Below are positions 7,998-27,748 of a stretch of DNA of 41,420 nt, one piece after another. The notes below the pieces were generated by a model that worked only from the letters and a program-made list of their open reading frames with translations, was not told the origin of the DNA and did not search any database. Source of the stretch: a virus (taxonomy: Duplodnaviria; Caudoviricetes); the IMG/VR virus record IMGVR_UViG_3300025270_000024, positions 1-41,420 of that record; one strand, written 5' to 3'. Each line of letters begins with the position of its first letter. The first letter of the stretch is position 1. A program made the translations under genes and the position numbers.

Positions 7998-8789
7998 TTA
8001 CGCCTCGCAGTATCCGCTACATTCTTCGCCAAATAATTCAATCTGGTCTTCCTGTAAATACACCTCATCGAGCGGTTTACAGGAGCGATGCACGTAGGGT
8101 TTCCCGTCGAGCTTGCTGAATACAAATGACTCTCTGACTTCCTTGTCGAATGCCACGACATCGTTCCATTCTTCTGGCCGCTCTCGCTTCATGTCCAAAA
8201 AATACCGATTGCTGTGATAAGGGCAACCGATACAGCTTGACTTCATGGGTAACGGAAGGTCGTGCTTTTCTATGTACCGCTTACAGGATTCCCGATTCCA
8301 CCCAAGTTCAATCAATGGATACCGATGGACAGTGTTGGTTTCCCGACTGGGTTTCATTCGTTGTGCTTCATCGGTCGAAATGCCTATCCACATTCCAATG
8401 TGGTCTTTAAGTCTTTGTTTTGGTTTATAACCCAACCGTTTTCGCAGTTCCTGACGAATGGGTTTGATTTTGTAATCGTCCGTGCATTGACGCTTGGTCA
8501 TGCCTATATCCCCTGCGTCGTCACGGGTGAACAACGGGATATCCATAGCGCCACGATTACTTCGGATTGAGCCTTTTGTGATGGTTACCACTTCAATACC
8601 ATATTTCTCAGCATACTCAGTCATAAAACGTACGTGATCTGTGACTGCAACGGGTTCCCATTGGGTGTCAGCAAAGATAGCGACATCTGGACGCATCCTA
8701 TCTGGAAGGTCGTTATGGCACGCGGCCAGTAGCAATGCGCTCGATTGAACTCCCCCTCCGTAACTCAAACACTTGTACGGTTGTGTCAT
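7998..8789 (-). CDS. PAPS-reductase-like PP-loop (adenine nucleotide alpha hydrolase) protein
   Basis: 'SYGGGVQS', 'FADTQWE', 'RQCT..YKI.PI', 'YPL', 'KSSCIGCPY', C-terminal 'CSGYC'. Confidence 0.8.
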   Translation of the reverse strand: MTQPYKCLSYGGGVQSSALLLAACHNDLPDRMRPDVAIFADTQWEPVAVTDHVRFMTEYAEKYGIEVVTITKGSIRSNRGAMDIPLFTRDDAGDIGMTKRQCTDDYKIKPIRQELRKRLGYKPKQRLKDHIGMWIGISTDEAQRMKPSRETNTVHRYPLIELGWNRESCKRYIEKHDLPLPMKSSCIGCPYHSNRYFLDMKRERPEEWNDVVAFDKEVRESFVFSKLDGKPYVHRSCKPLDEVYLQEDQIELFGEECSGYCEA

Positions 8790-9079
8790 TGTTCTATCTT
8801 AATACGATGCTCGGTCACATCACGATGGCATTTCCTGTGCAACATGACACAGTTCTCCAGACTAAAGAGTTCTTCAATCGGTCGGCCTCGCAGTTGAGCG
8901 CGGCTTTTCAGTTCGTGCATTTCAGGGGTCTGCTCTCCTGTTCCGAATATCTCCCCGCAGACACGACATCTCCTGTCACGCATTGACACCAATAGTCGTA
9001 TCTTGGCGATATGTGCCTTGCGACGAGCCTTCTGAGCCGCCTTCTCTTTTTTCCGAGGTTCTAGTTTTGGGAATTGCAT
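8786..9079 (-). CDS. Small HNH endonuclease
   Basis: 'RD..CRVCG...MHE...ENCVMLHRKCH...T'; no SD upstream of the ATG. Confidence 0.75.
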   Translation of the reverse strand: MQFPKLEPRKKEKAAQKARRKAHIAKIRLLVSMRDRRCRVCGEIFGTGEQTPEMHELKSRAQLRGRPIEELFSLENCVMLHRKCHRDVTEHRIKIEQ

Positions 9080-9088
9080 GAGATTGGT

Positions 9089-9180
9089 GGAGTACGGGGA
9101 GTACTGGGAAGGAGGTGGACTGGCGATCCACGACTGAAACCTCTCGGTTCCAGCAAACCCAGGGGGCTGCCCCGCACCCC
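9089..9180 (-). ncRNA. Putative structured sRNA (three-way junction) antisense to early-gene start motifs
   Basis: - strand fold: P1 GGGGUGCGGGG/CCCCGUACUCC (11 bp); P2 CUGGG/CCCAG; P3 CUGGAACC-GAGA-GGUUUCAG; P4 GUGGA-UCGCCAG-UCCAC; junction CUCCUU. Three G-U pairs work only on the - strand. Confidence 0.7.
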
Positions 9181-9184
9181 GAAG

Positions 9185-9754
9185 TTATTTTACATGAGTT
9201 CTGGTTCTCTTGAGTCGTGATTTTGCTCTTTCTTTCTCAAGCACTGGATTACGAGTCCAGCACTGGCAATGCTGGTAGCGTCTGTCTTGAACCTCCACCC
9301 ATCCTAAATCCCGACACGTTGGACACGCATAGGTCGGCACCTTCGGCGTGGATACCTTCATGGCGTGGTCGGCTGAGAGCGTGCGGCCAGTGAGTTTCTC
9401 CATCTGCACCACGAACTTAGCACGGGCCACCTTGATCCGCTCAACCTCGCTCCCCTCTGCATCTCTCGGTGCGTAAAGTTGCTTGAGGTCGGTGTTGGTA
9501 TCCTCGACCAGTGATTCCGCTGCAATATTGTCTGCCATGCGGAACCATGTTCCCGCATCTGGCATAAACGCGCCTGGTGTCCGTTTAAGTTCCCGTGCGG
9601 CCTGTTCAACGGCATCTATCGGCAGTTCGCCAAGCAGTTCAAAATAGGATTCATACTCAGCCTCATCATGTTCCCCTGACTTGGAAACAGCGAGGTTGTT
9701 AAATGCCTGTAGGAACCTCTGAGGCTCCCCTGACGTATAACGATGCGTCATCAC
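9185..9754 (-). CDS. Replication-associated protein (helicase-loader-like), C-terminal Zn motif
   Basis: Follows the initiator; 'YFELL.ELP...F.P.A'; CPTC...CQC. Confidence 0.55.
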   Translation of the reverse strand: MMTHRYTSGEPQRFLQAFNNLAVSKSGEHDEAEYESYFELLGELPIDAVEQAARELKRTPGAFMPDAGTWFRMADNIAAESLVEDTNTDLKQLYAPRDAEGSEVERIKVARAKFVVQMEKLTGRTLSADHAMKVSTPKVPTYACPTCRDLGWVEVQDRRYQHCQCWTRNPVLEKERAKSRLKRTRTHVK

Positions 9755-10512
9755 GATGATTCCTCCTTATGGCGCGATAAGAACCCCTCAGAGGCCGATA
9801 CGAGCGATTGTGTCTGCTTGCTGACCTTTGGGGTTGGAGTGGGTAGTTCATCCTCCCATTGCTGCTGCCGTAGCCATGTGGTCGGATGAGGGATATAGCG
9901 TTGAGCCGTTTGGTTGGCTCTCCAGTATTGGTTGTATCGCTTTGTTCCCTCGGAAATAGACTCCCATAGGTCATCGTCGGTTTCTACGTCCAGCTTATCC
10001 CATACCTTGAGAGCAGCCTGTTTCTTAGCCTTGCGGGGATATTGTCTCCACCATTCCTTAAATCTCGGATGCGTCGTTTTTTGTACTACTTGATCTTTAT
10101 TAGTACTTAATTCTTTATATAACACACCCGCCTGACGCATTCGGCTACGAGCGGTCTTTATCGTTGACGTAGTTGGCTCAGGTAGGGGTATTTTATCGTG
10201 GTAGGTAGCGACATCAATATGGCTACCCTGCACCATAATCAATTCGTACTCGTTTGGCATCCAGCCGTTCTTCTCGGTACGGTTGTGGATGACCTTCAAG
10301 CATCCCTCATCCCTAAGCGCATGTATCCACCTGTCGATGGTTTCTACCGTGACATCCATCAGGTCGGCCATCTCTGCCCTCGATAGCTCAGTGCGCTTGT
10401 TGGTATAGACCGCATGAAGATACAACCAGAGTCTAAGCGCCCCCGCTGGAATGTTTTTACTGAGAACCATCCAGAGGGGAACAACAGCTAAGGCTCCCGT
10501 CTGGAGTCTCAT
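9751..10512 (-). CDS. Phage replication initiator (N-terminal wHTH)
   Basis: 'SRAEMADLMDVTVETIDRWIHAL' HTH; 'FKEWWRQYPRK..K..A...W', 'IPHPTTWL.Q..WEDE'. Confidence 0.8.
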   Translation of the reverse strand: MRLQTGALAVVPLWMVLSKNIPAGALRLWLYLHAVYTNKRTELSRAEMADLMDVTVETIDRWIHALRDEGCLKVIHNRTEKNGWMPNEYELIMVQGSHIDVATYHDKIPLPEPTTSTIKTARSRMRQAGVLYKELSTNKDQVVQKTTHPRFKEWWRQYPRKAKKQAALKVWDKLDVETDDDLWESISEGTKRYNQYWRANQTAQRYIPHPTTWLRQQQWEDELPTPTPKVSKQTQSLVSASEGFLSRHKEESS

Positions 10513-11030
10513 CGTGTAACCAGCGTGACATCTGTCTCAACGCGACATCCTGGCATGGAGAACAAGCCACCGAATTGCTTGGCGATCTTGTTGAGCGCAG
10601 GGATATTAGGTTTTACAACATCGCTGGATACCTTGCCCTCGGCAATCGCTTTAATTAAGGCATCAACATCCTCAACAACAACACGACTAGTGGTGAGGCG
10701 ATGGTGATTGAGTTGCTCGGTGAGGGCAGCTTGATCCAGCCCGTCCTCGTTTGTGTCCTCGTATTCCTGAATCAGTACCGAGAGGCGTTCTTCTGATGGG
10801 GCCAGTTTCGCAAGGTCGGCCTTCTCCATGTCCAGTACCGTCTTACGGGTACCGTTCAGCGCATCCTTAATCGGTTTGTAGTGGCTTGTGATGGTGCGTC
10901 TCATCATCTGCACGACTGAGAGGTGTTCGCACGCCATCTGATACGTCTGCGGATCGTGAACCTCCAGCGTTACCTCGCTGATCTGGTTCAGTTGTGTCTC
11001 GACCTTCTTCGGAAGTTTCCTGATTGCCAT
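10509..11030 (-). CDS. Coiled-coil recombination-module protein (Gp157/Gam-like)
   Basis: AAGGAGG RBS before MAIRKLP; C-terminal 'N.IAK....MPGCRV'. Confidence 0.5.
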   Translation of the reverse strand: MAIRKLPKKVETQLNQISEVTLEVHDPQTYQMACEHLSVVQMMRRTITSHYKPIKDALNGTRKTVLDMEKADLAKLAPSEERLSVLIQEYEDTNEDGLDQAALTEQLNHHRLTTSRVVVEDVDALIKAIAEGKVSSDVVKPNIPALNKIAKQFGGLFSMPGCRVETDVTLVTR

Positions 11031-11566: not shown

Positions 11567-12313
11567 CTAGAACGGGATATCTTTAGCCGTAACTTCTTGC
11601 GCTTCCACGGTGAAGTTTCCCGCTTCGATCATGTTGATGATTTCCTCGTACTTCTTCCACTGGATATCTTCAAGGCCATTAAAGCCAAAGTTTTCCTTTG
11701 CATAGCCCTTAATAGACTCAACGTCAGCATCCTTGCCTTTCGCAATGGCGTACAAGCGCTTCAGTTGTTTTTCAGAGATGCACCCTGGTTTCTTATTCCC
11801 GTTCGCTTTGGGTGGAGCCGTCTGCGTTACGGGCTTGGATGGTGTTATCTCAGTCCTGTGGTTTTCTGCGTCGGGTGCTTCACCATTGCCGTTGTCGGTC
11901 ACACAGAGAAACATCTTTGCTACGAGGAATTTACTGGCTGCGGTGGTGGCCTTGTTGATGCCCTTATCGCTGGCATCTGCGCCTTCGGCACGCCACGGGA
12001 TATCAATGACTTCTCCCGTATCACCATCCATGAGTCGATAGTTCATGCTGATTGTCACAAGACCCTTCTCAGGAACACGCTCCACGCCCGTGATCGACGG
12101 GATGAGCATAATATGATTCGCCGCCATCTTGCCCCGAATGGCATCAAAGAGTTCTGGCTCCATCACATACTTATAATTGTGATGGGCGTTGTAACCCTTC
12201 ATGGGGACTTCTTCAATCTCGCCCATAATTTGAGACAGTTTAGCGACGAGTGATTTCGGTTTCCCGTTCGTTCGTTTCTTTGTTGTCTTGGGTACAGCTG
12301 CTTCTTCTACCAT
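11567..12313 (-). CDS. erf: ERF-family ssDNA annealing protein
   Basis: 'KGYN....YKYV', 'G.D.SDKG..KATTAA.K', 'ISEKQLKRLYAI'; acidic DIPF C-terminal tail. Confidence 0.85.
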   Translation of the reverse strand: MVEEAAVPKTTKKRTNGKPKSLVAKLSQIMGEIEEVPMKGYNAHHNYKYVMEPELFDAIRGKMAANHIMLIPSITGVERVPEKGLVTISMNYRLMDGDTGEVIDIPWRAEGADASDKGINKATTAASKFLVAKMFLCVTDNGNGEAPDAENHRTEITPSKPVTQTAPPKANGNKKPGCISEKQLKRLYAIAKGKDADVESIKGYAKENFGFNGLEDIQWKKYEEIINMIEAGNFTVEAQEVTAKDIPF

Positions 12314-12357
12314 GATTCCTCCTATTCAATTTTTCAACCGTTGTAATTACCGATTGA

Positions 12358-12531
12358 TTATATCCTCTTTTTCTGTTTTGTGTATGGGACGATCTCCGCA
12401 TCCAGAAAACGCTCGGCCAGTTTCTTATAAGCGTTCTCCTGGCTGGAGCCAAATGCCCCATGTAGCTCAGTCGCACCACTCGGCAGCGTTACATGAAACT
12501 GAAACTCCTTAATGTCGCTTGGCTTTGTCAT
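12358..12531 (-). CDS. Hypothetical protein (57 aa, not in ORF track)
   Basis: MTKPSDIKEFQFHVTLPSG...; ATGA overlap with the upstream ORF. Confidence 0.5.
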   Translation of the reverse strand: MTKPSDIKEFQFHVTLPSGATELHGAFGSSQENAYKKLAERFLDAEIVPYTKQKKRI

Positions 12532-12701
12532 CCTATAAACTCAGGTTGTTTTTTCAGGAAATCAATAGCCTCTTGTTTACTGGAGACACCAGTAACGATA
12601 TCGCTATAGGTCATTCCTGTCGGCAGCGTGTCGTGTTCAAGCATCGACACCAACCAGTCTCTACTCATCTTCATTGGTAATGTTTTGGGTTTTGTTGCCA
12701 T
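12528..12701 (-). CDS. Hypothetical protein (57 aa, not in ORF track)
   Basis: MATKPKTLPMKMSRDWLV...; preceded by GGAGGAACTGGCG motif. Confidence 0.6.
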   Translation of the reverse strand: MATKPKTLPMKMSRDWLVSMLEHDTLPTGMTYSDIVTGVSSKQEAIDFLKKQPEFIG

Positions 12702-12720
12702 CGCCAGTTCCTCCGTATTT

Positions 12721-12906
12721 TTACCCGTTATTTAAGTGTGGTAACAGTTTCTCTATACGCCGCAATCTGTTTTCAAGCCATTTCTCAGATACTTGATACG
12801 GTTCGCCCCAACAGTATTTCACCATGAGTTCCCCGTGGAGCCGTTCAAGCAATTCAACAAGATCACGCTTAGTAGACTTAACTGGTACTTCGCCATAACC
12901 GTGCAT
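12721..12906 (-). CDS. Hypothetical protein
   Basis: Preceded by the identical start motif and a sigma70 promoter. Confidence 0.6.
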   Translation of the reverse strand: MHGYGEVPVKSTKRDLVELLERLHGELMVKYCWGEPYQVSEKWLENRLRRIEKLLPHLNNG

Positions 12907-12948
12907 CGCCAGTTCCTCCGTATTTTTAGATAAAACAACGCTACAGTG

Positions 12949-12977
12949 ATCTTATCACAGATAGTATGGCGTGTCAA
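12949..12977 (-). promoter_or_regulatory. Sigma70-type promoter for the recombination/replication operon
   Basis: TTGACA-17 nt-TAAGAT with extended -10 TG. Confidence 0.75.
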
Positions 12978-13014: not shown

Positions 13015-13335
13015 TTAATGCACTTTCAGGTCACAAGCACTCCGTAACTGCTCGTAGATATCCGCGCATAACTGCTCCTGATGTTCAGGGGCATAGCACT
13101 CAGCCATGACTTCACTGGCTACTGCGAGACAGGCCGACATGACTTGTGGCGGCGTGTAATCACCATCGCTGGCCTCACCTCGAATCGCATTGCTGAGTGT
13201 CACGATGCCCCTGACATCATCGGTGCTAATGGATAGTTCACGCGCTACCCTCCGTATGCCGGCCTCGCTCGGCTTGCCATCCTTAATCGCAAGGTTGACT
13301 GAGCCTCTCCCAAAGAACTTTTTTTTAGTCGGCAT
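13015..13335 (-). CDS. Hypothetical protein
   Basis: MPTKKKFFGRG start overlapping the upstream gene end. Confidence 0.5.
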   Translation of the reverse strand: MPTKKKFFGRGSVNLAIKDGKPSEAGIRRVARELSISTDDVRGIVTLSNAIRGEASDGDYTPPQVMSACLAVASEVMAECYAPEHQEQLCADIYEQLRSACDLKVH

Positions 13336-13690
13336 TTTTCCGTGGCCTTTCGTTCTGATCGTACTCAACGTGGATATGGTTATAGTGGCCCGGACTGTTC
13401 CAGATAACATCGTAGCCGTAACCAAGATGGGATTTGAAGTGCTTCGCCAGCGTCCCCATCGCCCTCTTGTTTGGCGTTCCGTTTTTTGTTTTTGAAAGCA
13501 CTTGGAAATCCACGGCCAAGTCGCTGTAGTGGAGACTGTTGTTGCTATGGGTATGGTCGTTTAACGAACTGATACGGATGTTATATCCGCTCTTGTTACT
13601 CCAGGCAGCAGCAGTTTTGAGGATGCGGATCAGTTCATCCGGTACTGTCTTGAGTGATAGCGCCTCGCGCAAGCCATCAAAGTCAATCAT
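13325..13690 (-). CDS. Peptidase M15-type Zn peptidoglycan hydrolase (candidate endolysin)
   Basis: 'ISSLNDH.H..NSLHY..LAVDF' and 'NHIHVEYD' (LAS/M15 motifs). Confidence 0.75.
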   Translation of the reverse strand: MIDFDGLREALSLKTVPDELIRILKTAAAWSNKSGYNIRISSLNDHTHSNNSLHYSDLAVDFQVLSKTKNGTPNKRAMGTLAKHFKSHLGYGYDVIWNSPGHYNHIHVEYDQNERPRKNAD

Positions 13691-15611: not shown

Positions 15612-15788
15612 TTACTTGTCCTCCGTAATACCAAGTTCGTTGTTGATGAGGGTATCAAGCTGTTTCTTGACTTCTGGTTTATCGTCAAGCCCCATGATGA
15701 CAATGTGATCGTCTTTCCAGTGTTTTAAGCGATCTTGTCGGAAAGACTCCACGACACTATCCGTTGCGTTTTCTGTTTTGTTTTTCAT
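15612..15788 (-). CDS. Hypothetical protein (58 aa, not in ORF track)
   Basis: MKNKTENATDSVVESF...; start motif AAGGAGTAACTGGCGATG. Confidence 0.6.
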   Translation of the reverse strand: MKNKTENATDSVVESFRQDRLKHWKDDHIVIMGLDDKPEVKKQLDTLINNELGITEDK

Positions 15789-15827
15789 CGCCAGTTACTC
15801 CTTTTGCTTGTTTATTATAGTGTATTT

Positions 15828-16067
15828 TCAACTGTTGAAAGGTTTAGATAGCTTATTGAACTCTGCCATTGCTTTAGCTGCAGCTTCGGCGCTCCCTTCT
15901 TCGGACTCTCCTGTAGCAGTAACCATTTGACGCATACTGCCATCCATCATGCGGTGATACCGACCGCTACGAATAGCTGCAACAAATGTTTTTGTATCGT
16001 GGTCAAATACTACTTCTATATTTCTGGTGTTAAAATTCCAGTCCCGCATTTCAAAGTTTTCAGTCAT
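15828..16067 (-). CDS. Hypothetical early protein
   Basis: Start motif AAGGAGTAACTGGCGATG. Confidence 0.6.
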   Translation of the reverse strand: MTENFEMRDWNFNTRNIEVVFDHDTKTFVAAIRSGRYHRMMDGSMRQMVTATGESEEGSAEAAAKAMAEFNKLSKPFNS

Positions 16068-16081
16068 CGCCAGTTACTCCT

Positions 16082-17134: not shown

Positions 17135-17161
17135 AAAAAAGGGTACCTTGACGGTACCCTT
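17135..17161 (-). terminator. Rho-independent terminator
   Basis: AAGGGTACC-GTCAA-GGTACCCTT followed by a T-run on the - strand. Confidence 0.75.
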
Positions 17162-17184: not shown

Positions 17185-17682
17185 TTATACAACTGACCAA
17201 CACTCAGTCCATGTATCGCCATCACGTGACCAGAGCGTACAGTTACCGTGGTCGTTGACTGCTAAGTAATGCGTATATTCGGCTGGAACGTGTTCTTCTA
17301 CGCTGTTAGTCTCAATCGTTGACGTAAAGACAAAACCATCAAAACCGCCTTGCCTGGTATCCTCAAATAATTCAGGTTCTGGCCATACGCCAAAATCAGC
17401 GCCATCGCCTTGGTGCATACCTAGATAGCAATAATCGGGAGTGTAGTTATCTGCTATCTCTTTGGTCTCATCAAAGATGTATTCGAGCTTTTCTGAATAC
17501 TCTTCTTCAGATTCTTCCAAGCGTTCTATTTCTTCTGAGAATTCCCTTTTGAGTTTCTTAAGGGTATTCAGATCGTTTGTATCAAGATCAAGCCTGTCCA
17601 TATGCCAGATCAAGTTATTCCCGATATCTTCGGTTTTGAGGGTACCCTCACTAATCGTGCCTAAATCAAATTGTGTCTGCAT
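17185..17682 (-). CDS. Very acidic early protein
   Basis: Start motif; 'G.H.GDGADFGVW', 'VNDHGN'. Confidence 0.65.
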   Translation of the reverse strand: MQTQFDLGTISEGTLKTEDIGNNLIWHMDRLDLDTNDLNTLKKLKREFSEEIERLEESEEEYSEKLEYIFDETKEIADNYTPDYCYLGMHQGDGADFGVWPEPELFEDTRQGGFDGFVFTSTIETNSVEEHVPAEYTHYLAVNDHGNCTLWSRDGDTWTECWSVV

Positions 17683-17715
17683 TGCCAGTTATCTCCTATC
17701 TAAAGTGTATGGTTC

Positions 17716-17843: not shown

Positions 17844-17868
17844 AAAAAGGCACCTGTTACAGTGCCTT
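17844..17868 (-). terminator. Rho-independent terminator
   Basis: AAGGCAC...GTGCCTT followed by a T-run on the - strand. Confidence 0.65.
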
Positions 17869-17884: not shown

Positions 17885-18184
17885 TTAGCTGAGATCGTCC
17901 ACAACTGACCATAAACCCCAGTCACCAAAAGTATCAGACGTACCCCAGTAGCAGTTGTCTACACCGTAATGCTCATTCATGTAGTCGGTAGATCCGTCCC
18001 AATACTCGCCACTATTAGGACACATAGATAAAGTGTGATCGTCTAGCTGTTGACACTCATGCTTGATGTTGGCCCCGTGATCGTTCGCAATCTCGACGAT
18101 CCGATCAACCATATAGATTCCGTGGACGTTATCCACATAGCAACCAACATCTGTTGGTGTGTATGTTGTGGTTTTGTTTTTCAT
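17885..18184 (-). CDS. Hypothetical early protein
   Basis: Start MKNKTTT after AGGAGTACTGGCG. Confidence 0.6.
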   Translation of the reverse strand: MKNKTTTYTPTDVGCYVDNVHGIYMVDRIVEIANDHGANIKHECQQLDDHTLSMCPNSGEYWDGSTDYMNEHYGVDNCYWGTSDTFGDWGLWSVVDDLS

Positions 18185-18236
18185 CGCCAGTACTCCTATG
18201 TTTAATTGTTTCAACGGTTTGCGTGTTCTAGACTGC

Positions 18237-18605
18237 CTAGTCTCGGATCAGATCAAGCGCATCGTCTATCAATTCTACCGTCAGCCGTTCCAGGTCAGGC
18301 TTACTAAATGCTGACGTTATCGCTTTTTGCGCGGTAGAGTAGTGACAGCTGTATTCTTTGGCTATGTACGACGTAAAACGCATAATAAGAAAAGAGCGTA
18401 GGCGTTTTGGCTTGTTTTCGTTTTCTCGCAGGTACTCGCAGTTTTGCGTGTAGTCGTCTTGATTATCATAACTACCGTCAAGGTAGCATCTAAAGAGCCT
18501 ACGCATGACATGATTAGAATCGTTGATCATATCTGGTACAGTATCGTCTGGCCATCCTGTACTTAATGATTGTAGATCACGGCGTATCTGTTCTTTAATG
18601 GTCAT
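18237..18605 (-). CDS. Hypothetical early protein
   Basis: Start motif AAGGAGATAACTGGTAATG. Confidence 0.6.
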   Translation of the reverse strand: MTIKEQIRRDLQSLSTGWPDDTVPDMINDSNHVMRRLFRCYLDGSYDNQDDYTQNCEYLRENENKPKRLRSFLIMRFTSYIAKEYSCHYSTAQKAITSAFSKPDLERLTVELIDDALDLIRD

Positions 18606-18686
18606 TACCAGTTATCTCCTTATGAATAGTGCCAAGTATGCACTAGCAGGAGCATAGCATCGCGCTATGCTCTAGCCACTACAGAC

Positions 18687-18878
18687 TTATGTGTGCGAAT
18701 ACCCGTCCGATTCTACGCCGACAAACATACCGCACCATTGAATGCCTAGAACGGTATCACCTTGACTAAAACCAAACAGCGTGGCCCTACGTCTAAACTC
18801 TAAATAACTGTTCGATCCGTCGCTGTTTCGGCAGTAGAGCCTATGCAGCGATTCTATCTGCGCTCGTGTTATCTTCAT
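18687..18878 (-). CDS. Small conserved-looking phage protein
   Basis: 'YL.FRR....WCGMFVGVESDGYSHT'; start motif. Confidence 0.65.
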   Translation of the reverse strand: MKITRAQIESLHRLYCRNSDGSNSYLEFRRRATLFGFSQGDTVLGIQWCGMFVGVESDGYSHT

Positions 18879-18908
18879 TACCAGTTTCTCCTTGTGTAGT
18901 CGTGTTGT

Positions 18909-19139
18909 TTACCAGTCAAACGCGGTACAGACAGGGCCACATCCGCATTGCTCACAACTGTGCTTCCGGATATCCGCCATACGTTGAGCTTCTTGGCGCT
19001 TCAATCGCTTAATCGCTTCGTACCGTGGGCTTGTCCTAGCTGGAGCGCCGTTCACCAGTTGCTTACATCGTTCACACGTATCCGGTTCATAGCGACCGAA
19101 AGCCCCATTGTTGCGGCAGTTGTGTCTTACAAACTCCAT
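18909..19139 (-). CDS. Cys/His-rich small protein
   Basis: 'H.C....FG.....C.RC..L..G.PAR...H.C....CGPVCTAFDW'; start motif. Confidence 0.65.
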   Translation of the reverse strand: MEFVRHNCRNNGAFGRYEPDTCERCKQLVNGAPARTSPRYEAIKRLKRQEAQRMADIRKHSCEQCGCGPVCTAFDW

Positions 19140-19296
19140 TGCCAGTTATCTCCTTGTGTAGTGCGTAGCCATTTACGCTCCGACTGATACTGTCATATTA
19201 CAGTACGAAAGCATGACAACGCAATACCTAATATATATAGATACATGCTCATAGGTTAGGGTAATCGACCAAACTACCAATATCAATGTAGCTAGT

Positions 19297-19536: not shown

Positions 19537-19995
19537 ATGCGGAGAGTTAGAATGTCAGTATCGTCCCGTCGTTCTGCGGAGACGGGGAGTCCTGGGTCGA
19601 GGGTGTTGCGGTATCCGGTGTCGTCTGAGGGGTTTGGGGAGTTATTGGATGAGATGCGGATGCGAGCGGGGTTATCGGTCCATGAGATTGCGCGGTTATG
19701 GAATGTGAAGCCGAATGCGTTATATCAGTATTTCCATAAGAAGCGTGGGCGTGGGGGGACGGGGACATTGCGGTGGTTTTTGCGATTTGCGTCGTCGTGT
19801 GGGTGTGAGGTGACGGTGACGTTTCCGAGGACGAGTCGTGGGCAGGAGAAGGTGGTGTTGTCGTATGGAGAGGAAGCTGAACAAGCGGGAAGCGACGGAA
19901 CTGGCGTCGATGATTCTGTCGGGCGCACCCATCGCGGAGGCGGTCAGGTATTTTTGGGACGAGGAGATGCCCGAAGAGGTGTTGATCGGGTGTGA
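19537..19995 (+). CDS. XRE-type HTH protein
   Basis: 'MRMRAGLSVHEIARLWNVKPNALYQY...TL....RFA...GC'; C-terminus overlaps the next ORF. Confidence 0.6.
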   Translation: MRRVRMSVSSRRSAETGSPGSRVLRYPVSSEGFGELLDEMRMRAGLSVHEIARLWNVKPNALYQYFHKKRGRGGTGTLRWFLRFASSCGCEVTVTFPRTSRGQEKVVLSYGEEAEQAGSDGTGVDDSVGRTHRGGGQVFLGRGDARRGVDRV

Positions 19996-26458: not shown

Positions 26459-27748
26459 ATGGCGAGTACAACTGATGTCGTTGAAGCCTTGAAATACACC
26501 TATGGTGTGGATCAAGTCTCGTACTTGGTCAACCAGGAGGTTGTCTGCTGGAATATGTTCCAGAAGGCGAAAAAACCTGTTGGTGGTCGAGGGCAATTCT
26601 TGATGCCCATTATGGTGAAAAACCCCGGTTCGTGGACAGGTCTTGCGGAAGGTGGTTCGTTGCCGTCTAACCTCAATCCCGATACGACCGAGGCATCCTT
26701 CAGTCTGGAAGAATTTGCCGGACTGTACAACATGTCGTGGAAACTCCTCCAAGACGCACGGAACTCAAAGTTTGCGTTTCAGACGGCGTTGAAAATGATG
26801 GAGGCGGGTTTCCGTCGTCGTGTCCTCAAGCTCCTCAATGCCGACCTCTTGTCTGATGGTCTTGGCAAACTGGCCGTGATGCCAGCCGCCGATAACCAGA
26901 CGACGATTACCGTCGATGCTCTACCGAGTCTCGATGTCGGCATGGTCGTTGACTTGATGGATGCGTCGGACAACAACGCGAAGTTAGCTGACTCTGCAAC
27001 GGTCACAGCGATAGATGCGCCAAATCGTACTGTTACGATTAGCGGTTCTGCGCCAAGTGGCACCGCCGCAGGTGACTACTTCGTCATTCAAGACACGGTG
27101 TCGTCAAGCACCTCATACCATACCAATGGTTTGTTGGGCATTATTGACAACGATGATCCGCCAACACCGAAGGGTGACTTTGGTGGGATCGACCGTGGTA
27201 CCGCAGGGAACGAATTTTGGGAATCTGTGGTCTTGGCTAATGGTGGCACTAACCGCGCACTGACAGAAGACCTGCTGATGCAGCTAGAAGATTCTGTCCG
27301 TGAAAAAGGTGGGGCCAAGTTGAACTCCTACATCTCCAACCTGCCGATTATTCGCCGGTATCACGAACTTCTCCGCGAAGATGCGTTCTTTGCGATGAGT
27401 TCACCGAAGGCGTTTGATGGTGGGTCTGGTGTGGGGCGTGATGGTGGGGCGCAGCAAAAAGGTAAAGATGGTGGCGATGGCCGCACGATTTACCGTTTTA
27501 GCGGCAATCCGTGGCACGCAGAGCCGTATTTTGCGGCGAATACGATTATCGGTCTGGATACCAAGCATTTCTTCATCGGTCACGGTGAAAATGCGGTGCC
27601 TCGTCCGGTATCGGAAATCTTCGATGGAACACCGTTCTTCCGTCAGACTTCCAACTCCACTTTTGAGGTGGCGTGGTACTGGCAGGGTGAGTTGCTGAGT
27701 GATAATCCAGCGGCAGGTGCGAAGATTGAAGACGTAGCAGAGTCGTAA
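26459..27748 (+). CDS. Major capsid protein
   Basis: 429 aa after scaffold; 'AEGG.LP', 'DG.G.LA', 'GIDR....FW'. Confidence 0.8.
   Translation: MASTTDVVEALKYTYGVDQVSYLVNQEVVCWNMFQKAKKPVGGRGQFLMPIMVKNPGSWTGLAEGGSLPSNLNPDTTEASFSLEEFAGLYNMSWKLLQDARNSKFAFQTALKMMEAGFRRRVLKLLNADLLSDGLGKLAVMPAADNQTTITVDALPSLDVGMVVDLMDASDNNAKLADSATVTAIDAPNRTVTISGSAPSGTAAGDYFVIQDTVSSSTSYHTNGLLGIIDNDDPPTPKGDFGGIDRGTAGNEFWESVVLANGGTNRALTEDLLMQLEDSVREKGGAKLNSYISNLPIIRRYHELLREDAFFAMSSPKAFDGGSGVGRDGGAQQKGKDGGDGRTIYRFSGNPWHAEPYFAANTIIGLDTKHFFIGHGENAVPRPVSEIFDGTPFFRQTSNSTFEVAWYWQGELLSDNPAAGAKIEDVAES

Follow-up and report, generated by a model that had tools for sequence, protein, structure and literature searches.

A 92-base RNA element, encoded on the minus strand just behind gA in the replication operon of this phage, is reasonably likely to be a c4/CI-like trans-acting antisense RNA that would be made with that operon and block translation of early genes, as judged from comparative sequence analysis. 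Its loop and the starts of its presumed targets changed together in two lineages, and it is therefore likely that one RNA switches off a block of early genes. That a selected RNA structure is present at this site seems, on the same comparisons, close to settled. Throughout, "the window" denotes the whole virus record analysed (41,420 bases; 99% complete by its record).

Genome setting

The plus strand of the window carries the terminase, portal and capsid genes (PHROG and Pfam), and the minus strand a block of small unknown ORFs from 19139 down to 12358 (PHROG, Pfam). These are followed on the minus strand by ERF, exonuclease, g10509, the replication initiator, gA, the element itself, a small HNH-like gene and a PAPS-reductase-like gene. 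The features around and within the element are:

9751-10512, minus strand: replication initiator, the next gene up from gA
9185..9751, minus strand: gA, 188 aa; the RNA begins 4 nt past the gA stop
9089..9180, minus strand: candidate RNA, 92 bases; a stalk closing two hairpins and a junction
9180-9170 with 9099-9089, minus strand: stalk P1 (predicted fold)
9162-9158 with 9108-9104, minus strand: P2 (predicted fold)
9133..9154, minus strand: P3, a GAGA-tetraloop hairpin, varying freely in length and sequence among relatives
9115..9131, minus strand: P4, hairpin GUGGA/UCCAC with loop UCGCCAG (9126-9120), the predicted seed
9109..9114, minus strand: unpaired junction CUCCUU, an anti-Shine-Dalgarno sequence
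9085..9088, minus strand: ACCA directly 3' of the stalk, a possible RNase P-type end
8786..9079, minus strand: small HNH-like gene downstream of the RNA, with no SD in front
12949..12977, minus strand: sigma-70-like promoter match TTGACA-17-TAAGAT, with TG; a consensus match only

The promoter-like site precedes the tagged genes starting at 12906 and 12701 and may mark the beginning of the operon containing the RNA; promoter-like matches in the region number 13, against 17.8 expected by chance. No Pfam or PHROG match was found for gA. Neither tyrosine nor serine recombinase (PF00589, PF07508) was matched in the window and four relatives (5/5 records, 3 of them at least 90% complete), the tRNA search found none, and searches of genome contigs returned no prophage and no host for the window phage. 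Among cultured phages there was no DNA or gA match to the window and only two weak capsid matches, as against 80-100% identity of the major capsid protein (26459-27748, plus strand) in 80 viral loci kept of 124 found, which points to a large uncultured phage group.

Several other features of the region deserve mention. A PAPS-reductase-like gene (7998-8789, minus strand) lies behind the HNH gene and is absent at that place in the close relatives L125 and L126; judging by this gene order, it is an exchangeable insert. The palindrome TTTCAACNGTTGAAA recurs between early genes at 12332, 15214, 15826 and 17167, more weakly at 8366 and 25400, and in L121 at about 3648; it is operator-like, and an HTH gene is present at 19537-19995 (plus strand). 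The early block is split by two strong terminator-like hairpins (17847-17868 and 17139-17161, minus strand), each followed by a similar TTTT..TGTACGCTCGTAA stretch.

A stable fold on the operon strand

The original prediction had described a closed minus-strand fold in a 105-nt gap between a replication gene and the HNH gene. The gap (9080-9184) is indeed 105 nt long and the fold is as described; the HNH side of the placement holds, but the gene directly upstream is gA, with the initiator one gene further. The minus strand of 9089-9180 folds at -46.9 kcal/mol (z -4.05, with none of 200 shuffles equally stable), as compared to a z of 0.04 for the plus strand, confirming the predicted strand preference. 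Opening the 7-nt loop costs 1.9 kcal/mol, the junction 0.01 kcal/mol and both together 1.9 kcal/mol; melting P4 costs 7.9 kcal/mol. Loop and junction are thus cheap to open. The original description of the loop needs one correction, in that its last G is predicted to be paired, in a weak closing pair.

The window RNA begins with 5' GG and ends with 3' ACCA. The latter suggests RNase P processing in the window, a feature that would not be general across the family: NCCA follows the stalk also in L125 and L121, not in most relatives. Rfam gave no gathering-level match in the window and no fitting family at E<=5 in 15 loci, and the C4 model (RF01695) found no match at E<=10, either in 8900-9400 or in any of five genomes. 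An antisense ORF on the plus strand was also considered, as some GCCAU versions of the element read SD-AUG backwards; this reading was rejected because the window's version has no AUG at that place.

Conservation in related loci

An alignment of gA homologues fetched 33 loci, one of which (L124) is near-identical to the window and not independent. A similar fold lies right after the gA stop in 28 of the 33, three of these being clipped by contig ends. In L134 and L136 the RNA is absent from the site and the gA and HNH genes abut; L145 and L146 carry another gene there, with the RNA of L145 found further down, behind a different gene; and the L153 sequence ends at the gA stop. Alignments of the HNH, DUF1016-like and endonuclease genes added L155, L159, L163, L256 and L292-294, bringing the distinct RNA sequences to 23 by our own count.

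What is conserved in these RNAs is the part predicted to touch the targets. GCCA is kept in the P4 loop of 22 of the 23 distinct sequences and CUC(C/U) follows P4 in the homologues inspected (partly inside a stem in L256); the stalk and P3 vary widely. Among the nine distinct GCCAU rows, 92.6% of P4 cells are paired, five of six pairs show two-sided changes and the loop GCCAU is invariant. Slid controls reach 28-52% paired versus 93% for P4, and none of 500 shuffles attained the covariation score, a test that relatedness of the rows can inflate. Between the window and L125, all 32 pairs are kept with three compensatory changes, and loop and junction are the same. The operon (sense) strand is the more stable one by z in 19/19 homologous loci folded, duplicates included. 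Conservation of the structure in related phages, which had been put forward as a check, is thereby supported by both its recurrence and its compensatory stem changes.

More generic searches were less productive. Owing to a poor alignment, the covariance model R1 contained no base pairs, and it served just to locate RNAs; RNAalifold on mixed homologues gave no useful consensus. The exact RNA core pattern had no matches in viral contigs. A tag-pattern scan returned 119 loci; those with multiple matches turned out to be in-frame repeats at 81-nt spacing, and tblastn linked none of them to the window. A search for gA in 22 larger viral records found it in one. A weak profile match in L202 lies in a virion-gene region and was not counted.

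Individual loci add detail. L121, whose RNA is weak, is sister to the RNA-less L134 on the gA tree, and decay followed by loss of the RNA is therefore suggested. Between its weak RNA and the HNH start (L121:10663-10725) lie tandem repeats of about 22 nt with CTCCACC, which is anti-SD-like, and its early genes share a different leader motif, GGA(C/A/T)TAGA(C/T). L137 (4587-5069), L138 and L143 (2881-3339) have the ATG of the HNH frame ahead of the RNA, and the frame stays open across the entire structure; L151 and L144 have a short ORF that spans the RNA and stops beside the HNH start.

Start tags complementary to loop and junction

The motif GGAG-N1-3-ACTGGY(G/A)ATG occurs at nine starts, all on the minus strand, and its one inverted copy (9111-9126) lies inside the element:

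12699..12714, minus strand: tag GGAGGAACTGGCGATG, gene 12528-12701 (ATG 12701), presumably in the same operon as the RNA
12904..12919, minus strand: tag GGAGGAACTGGCGATG, gene 12721-12906 (ATG 12906), the first gene past the promoter-like site
15786..15801, minus strand: tag GGAGTAACTGGCGATG, gene 15612-15788 (ATG 15788)
16065..16080, minus strand: tag GGAGTAACTGGCGATG, gene 15828-16067 (ATG 16067)
17680..17696, minus strand: tag GGAGATAACTGGCAATG, gene 17185-17682 (ATG 17682)
18182..18196, minus strand: tag GGAGTACTGGCGATG, gene 17885-18184 (ATG 18184)
18603..18619, minus strand: tag GGAGATAACTGGTAATG, gene 18237-18605 (ATG 18605)
18876..18891, minus strand: tag GGAGAAACTGGTAATG, gene 18687-18878 (ATG 18878)
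19137..19153, minus strand: tag GGAGATAACTGGCAATG, gene 18909-19139 (ATG 19139)

A strict form of the pattern has six matches in the window—five tags and, on the opposite strand, the RNA itself—versus 0.08 expected. The spacer between GGAG and ACTGG measures 1-3 nt in the tags and 4 nt in the RNA gene. Complementarity in two blocks had been claimed for all nine starts; all nine tags are present, but only five of them pair fully with AUCGCCAGU. Two of the other four have a C.A mismatch (CTGGCAA) and two a G.U pair plus a C.A mismatch (CTGGTAA). The G.U in CTGGTAA agrees with the claim that C-to-U variants keep a wobble; not all tag variants are wobble-safe, however, because four of the nine carry the C.A mismatch.

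Do the tagged starts stand out from the rest? Under a two-block model with target accessibility they rank 1-5, 8, 9, 10 and 19 of 55 starts (as called by a simple SD-based caller). Under a single-duplex model their mean rank is 9.6, which none of 300 shuffles of the seed side reaches. The ranking proposed as a check thus favours the tags, although some circularity enters both tests, complementarity having been the basis on which the tags were chosen. If the 21-nt segment is left unconstrained, the scores of the tags are equalled by many GA-rich sites away from starts. The tag occurs at 9/23 upstream same-strand starts versus 1/27 opposite-strand starts of the window (p 0.003). A near-tag, GGAGGAACTGCGAATG, is found at 13690 (minus strand; gene 13325-13690), ranks 14 in the single-duplex model and is a possible tenth, degenerate target.

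A further segment of the RNA, CCAGUACUCC, had been proposed as a second pairing site on the strength of its match to the 18184 start. The match exists, but the segment lies within P2/P1, costs 8.2 kcal/mol to open and is changed in L125, even though the protein upstream is 94% identical there. We rejected CCAGUACUCC as a pairing site, being both paired and unconserved, and its match is probably a coincidence.

Loop and gene starts change together

The loop of most relatives is (C/U)GCCAU, which is complementary to AUG-GC, and GGAG-N-AUG-GC is found at the starts of many upstream genes. The ancestral address was likely, on this comparison, an SD plus AUG-GC read by a GCCAU loop. Two genes of the window are likely targets of that ancestral type, the second of them through a G.U wobble:

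10509..11030, minus strand: g10509, conserved unknown gene; start GGAG-N7-AUG-GCA, rank 13 of 55
11567..12313, minus strand: ERF-like single-strand annealing gene; start AUG-GUA, rank 14 of 55

Against this background, two lineage-specific co-changes of loop and start motif, the kind of covariation called for as a check, are found. In the window lineage the loop is GCCAG, having lost the U, and the tag CUGGC stands ahead of the AUG; with that loss, the address would have become the separate tag. CTGGY precedes upstream starts in 9/23 cases in the window, 3/17 in L126 and 3/18 in L129, as compared to 0/154 in the other eleven sets. The second case is G005 (locus L159), whose loop is CUAGUCA (AGUCA): AUG-ACU opens 9/19 of its upstream genes versus 9/193 in 13 other sets, with a p value of 1.5e-6 that is overstated because related genomes were pooled. 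In G005, AUG-GC occurs at 0/19 upstream genes and AUG-ACU at 0/8 opposite-strand starts, and its annealing-protein and g10509 genes open with AUG-ACU where most GCCA relatives have (A/G)UG-GC. This switch is seen in one 19-kb fragment on a long branch, several early leaders of which look duplicated, and g10509 opens with AUG-AC in two GCCAU phages as well (L139 and G006).

When five loops were tried on the upstream genes of each set, a phage's own class scored best in 8 of 11 RNA-bearing sets; the loop of G002 itself was not among the five. Some starts of G002 take the form GGAG-N-AUGGCA-AUG and are possible intermediates on what would be a plausible route from start codon to separate tag, as far as their sequence goes. 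G006 showed no preference for its own class, and the loop of the weak-stemmed RNA of G001 (L121) scored worst on the phage's own early genes, which share another motif. In G001, where P4 is weak, and L136, which lacks the RNA at the site, upstream AUG-GC occurs at 1/29 starts taken together, versus 54/164. Tags also switch from one close relative to the next; at the 17682 gene, for instance, the CTGGCA of the window is AAGGCA in L126.

In GCCAU phages, AUG-GC is about equally frequent at upstream starts (24/57) and at opposite-strand, virion-gene starts (25/69; p 0.58). The ancestral address alone can therefore not separate early from late genes; such discrimination would need timing, spacer geometry or mRNA structure, or else late and host mRNAs would be hit too. 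Most late genes lack the CUGGC tag.

Alternative explanations

The equal frequency of AUG-GC in early and late genes of GCCAU phages invites the reading that the RNA does pair with starts, but mainly with those of generic SD plus AUG-GC mRNAs—from the host, the late genes or a co-infecting relative—and so acts in host shut-off, late-gene delay or exclusion, with the early tags a side effect. The junction is a generic anti-SD, ranks 6 and 7 of 55 fall to two opposite-strand starts (20054 and 30058), and the capsid start can pair with the loop over 6 nt. Yet the switched loops track the phage's own early starts (CUGGC at 9/23 versus 1/27; AUG-ACU at 9/19 versus 0/8 in G005), and a loop tuned to the host would not be expected to drop the U facing the A of AUG; we regard generic targeting as rather unlikely. 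A cis role is in our estimate unlikely, too: here, the fold would be a processing site, or a hairpin that couples translation by placing the gA stop beside the HNH start, which has no SD, with the complementarity being secondary. Long stalks could be RNase III sites, the element always sits between a stop and an SD-less start, gA and HNH genes abut where it is missing (L134, L136), and the HNH frame runs through it in L137, L138 and L143. However, neither coupling nor processing calls for an unchanging loop seed and junction set in a stalk that itself varies, and a hairpin serving either would not follow start sequences 3.5-10 kb away; moreover, coupling in L134 and L136 does without the element, which in L145 is found behind a different gene.

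It is quite improbable that the tags are instead bound by a protein, be it RegA-like on RNA or at a DNA operator, or were left behind by recombination of leader cassettes, the inverted copy then being a plus-strand decoy or a chance insertion. Such an origin would fit several early leaders that share more than the tag, such as two AAAAATACGGAGGAACTGGCG leaders, as well as G001 with its shared leaders and no matching RNA, and on the plus strand the tag itself would sit in a hairpin loop. But the fold favours the operon strand in all 19 loci, with the window's plus strand unstructured, the variable GGAG-ACTGG spacer (1-3 nt in tags, 4 nt in the RNA gene) differs from what a rigid DNA site would show, G.U pairing accommodates the C-to-U tag variants, and the CUGGC tag has a narrower distribution than the RNA family.

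Relation to known phage systems

The closest precedent is the c4 RNA of phages P1 and P7 (RF01695; PMC5320573, listed in PMC2864571), described as a three-stem antisense RNA cut from a longer transcript and pairing in trans via its loops a' and b', a' lying upstream of the RBS (PMC5320573). Three stems closed by a stalk are found in the window RNA and its relatives as well, and the candidate is predicted to share with c4, as portrayed there, action in trans through two short single-stranded segments, one over the ribosome-binding site, and shifts in specificity by co-change of loop and target. By the same account, c4 differs in using two loops, with the specificity loop upstream of the RBS, rather than a junction on the SD and a loop downstream, at or before the AUG. 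The P3 loop of the phage RNA is unconserved, leaving one loop plus the junction. Further, c4 is described there as a system of temperate-phage immunity; here, nine or more scattered genes would be addressed, and no integrase was found. Because the C4 model fails and the pairing would be by loop and junction, the phage RNA is not a C4 member.

The CI RNA of satellite phage P4 has a layout similar to that of the phage element, namely a stalk, two hairpins and a bulge or single-stranded junction. According to PMC4825925, CI is processed from the operon it regulates and pairs with two target sequences in trans, acting by transcription termination at the flanking seqA and seqC; the complements of the present element, in contrast, are translation starts up to 10 kb away. 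As to function, PMC3014915 has the T4 endoribonuclease RegB and the repressor RegA shut off early mRNAs at the GGAG SD (RegB) or the AUG region (RegA). These are likewise phage-made agents acting on many early mRNAs and easing the early-to-later transition, but on that account they are proteins with loose sequence rules, unlike the predicted RNA reader, whose seed could be re-addressed by base changes.

Tags resembling those of the window are known as SAS in Cluster K mycobacteriophages. In the available part of PMC3203893, SAS is a 13-mer ending 3-7 nt before the start; a lone copy in reverse orientation lies apart from any start, and the authors allow for either RNA or protein as the partner. 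An asymmetric, SD-containing tag at non-structural gene starts, in one orientation and with a single inverted copy, is found here too. As far as that source goes, the differences are that SAS is a fixed 13-mer, as opposed to two blocks with a variable spacer reaching into the AUG; that the 13-bp Cluster K consensus is absent from the window tags, which share just the AGGAG core; and that no partner is named for SAS, whereas here there is a candidate partner with covariation. In Anaya (JF704106), the region 28000-60835 holds 16 forward SAS sites versus one inverted, the latter in the gp96-gp97 gap (L348:31860-31890), where a hairpin presents the anti-SAS CUCCUAUCCC in a 10-nt loop on the transcribed strand. 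This inverted-SAS region is common to 148 records. The lead is partial because, in the five other Cluster K records inspected (L349-L353), the loop is kept in Niklas, a CU-rich variant in DarthP, and absent in Marshawn, Hurricane and Pixie.

The original prediction knew of no described system of this kind. The combination of an RNA with a tagged regulon was indeed not found in print, though c4, CI and SAS are precedents for its parts. Our search of the open-access literature turned up no phage RNA directed at a set of early genes marked by tags, and neither did the portion of a 2025 review (PMC12197685) at hand. Four core strings are absent from the six supplement files of PMC10690425 that the search covered; the RNA could still be among its 10,006 unnamed candidates.

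A proposed mechanism and its implications

What might such an RNA do during infection? As predicted earlier, apart from the discarded second segment, we favour a trans-acting RNA with a loop seed and an anti-SD, a reading to which the conserved fold, seed and junction and the co-change lend support. The RNA would be transcribed with the delayed-early replication operon, might be freed from the transcript by cleavage of the stalk, and could persist either processed or embedded in the mRNA. Docking would involve two short helices, the junction on the SD and the loop on the tag, with P4 staying unmelted. With SD and start region hidden from the ribosome, repression would set in once the RNA accumulates, resulting in a timed, delayed shut-off of early genes as replication begins and in feedback on the first genes of the RNA's own operon.

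More tentatively, these phages may possess an RNA "postcode" system, in which one RNA reads the SD of every gene of the early regulon together with a short tag in or next to its start codon, the address being re-keyed between lineages (AUGGC, CUGGC, AUGACU) and individual genes acquiring or losing their tags; such a system would explain the Cluster K SAS tags as well. If so, this would give a concrete answer to what SAS-type start tags bind, including in culturable mycobacteriophages, and the inverted-SAS hairpin of Anaya would make such a design accessible to testing in culture. A compact two-block anti-start RNA could also be a scaffold for multi-gene knockdown. Early-gene shut-off in lytic phages is known mainly through proteins such as T4 RegB and RegA. 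An RNA that silences a tagged gene set, its seed re-keyed along with the tags, would, if true, represent a different regulatory layer, and the tags would mark which of the unknown ORFs share one regulon.
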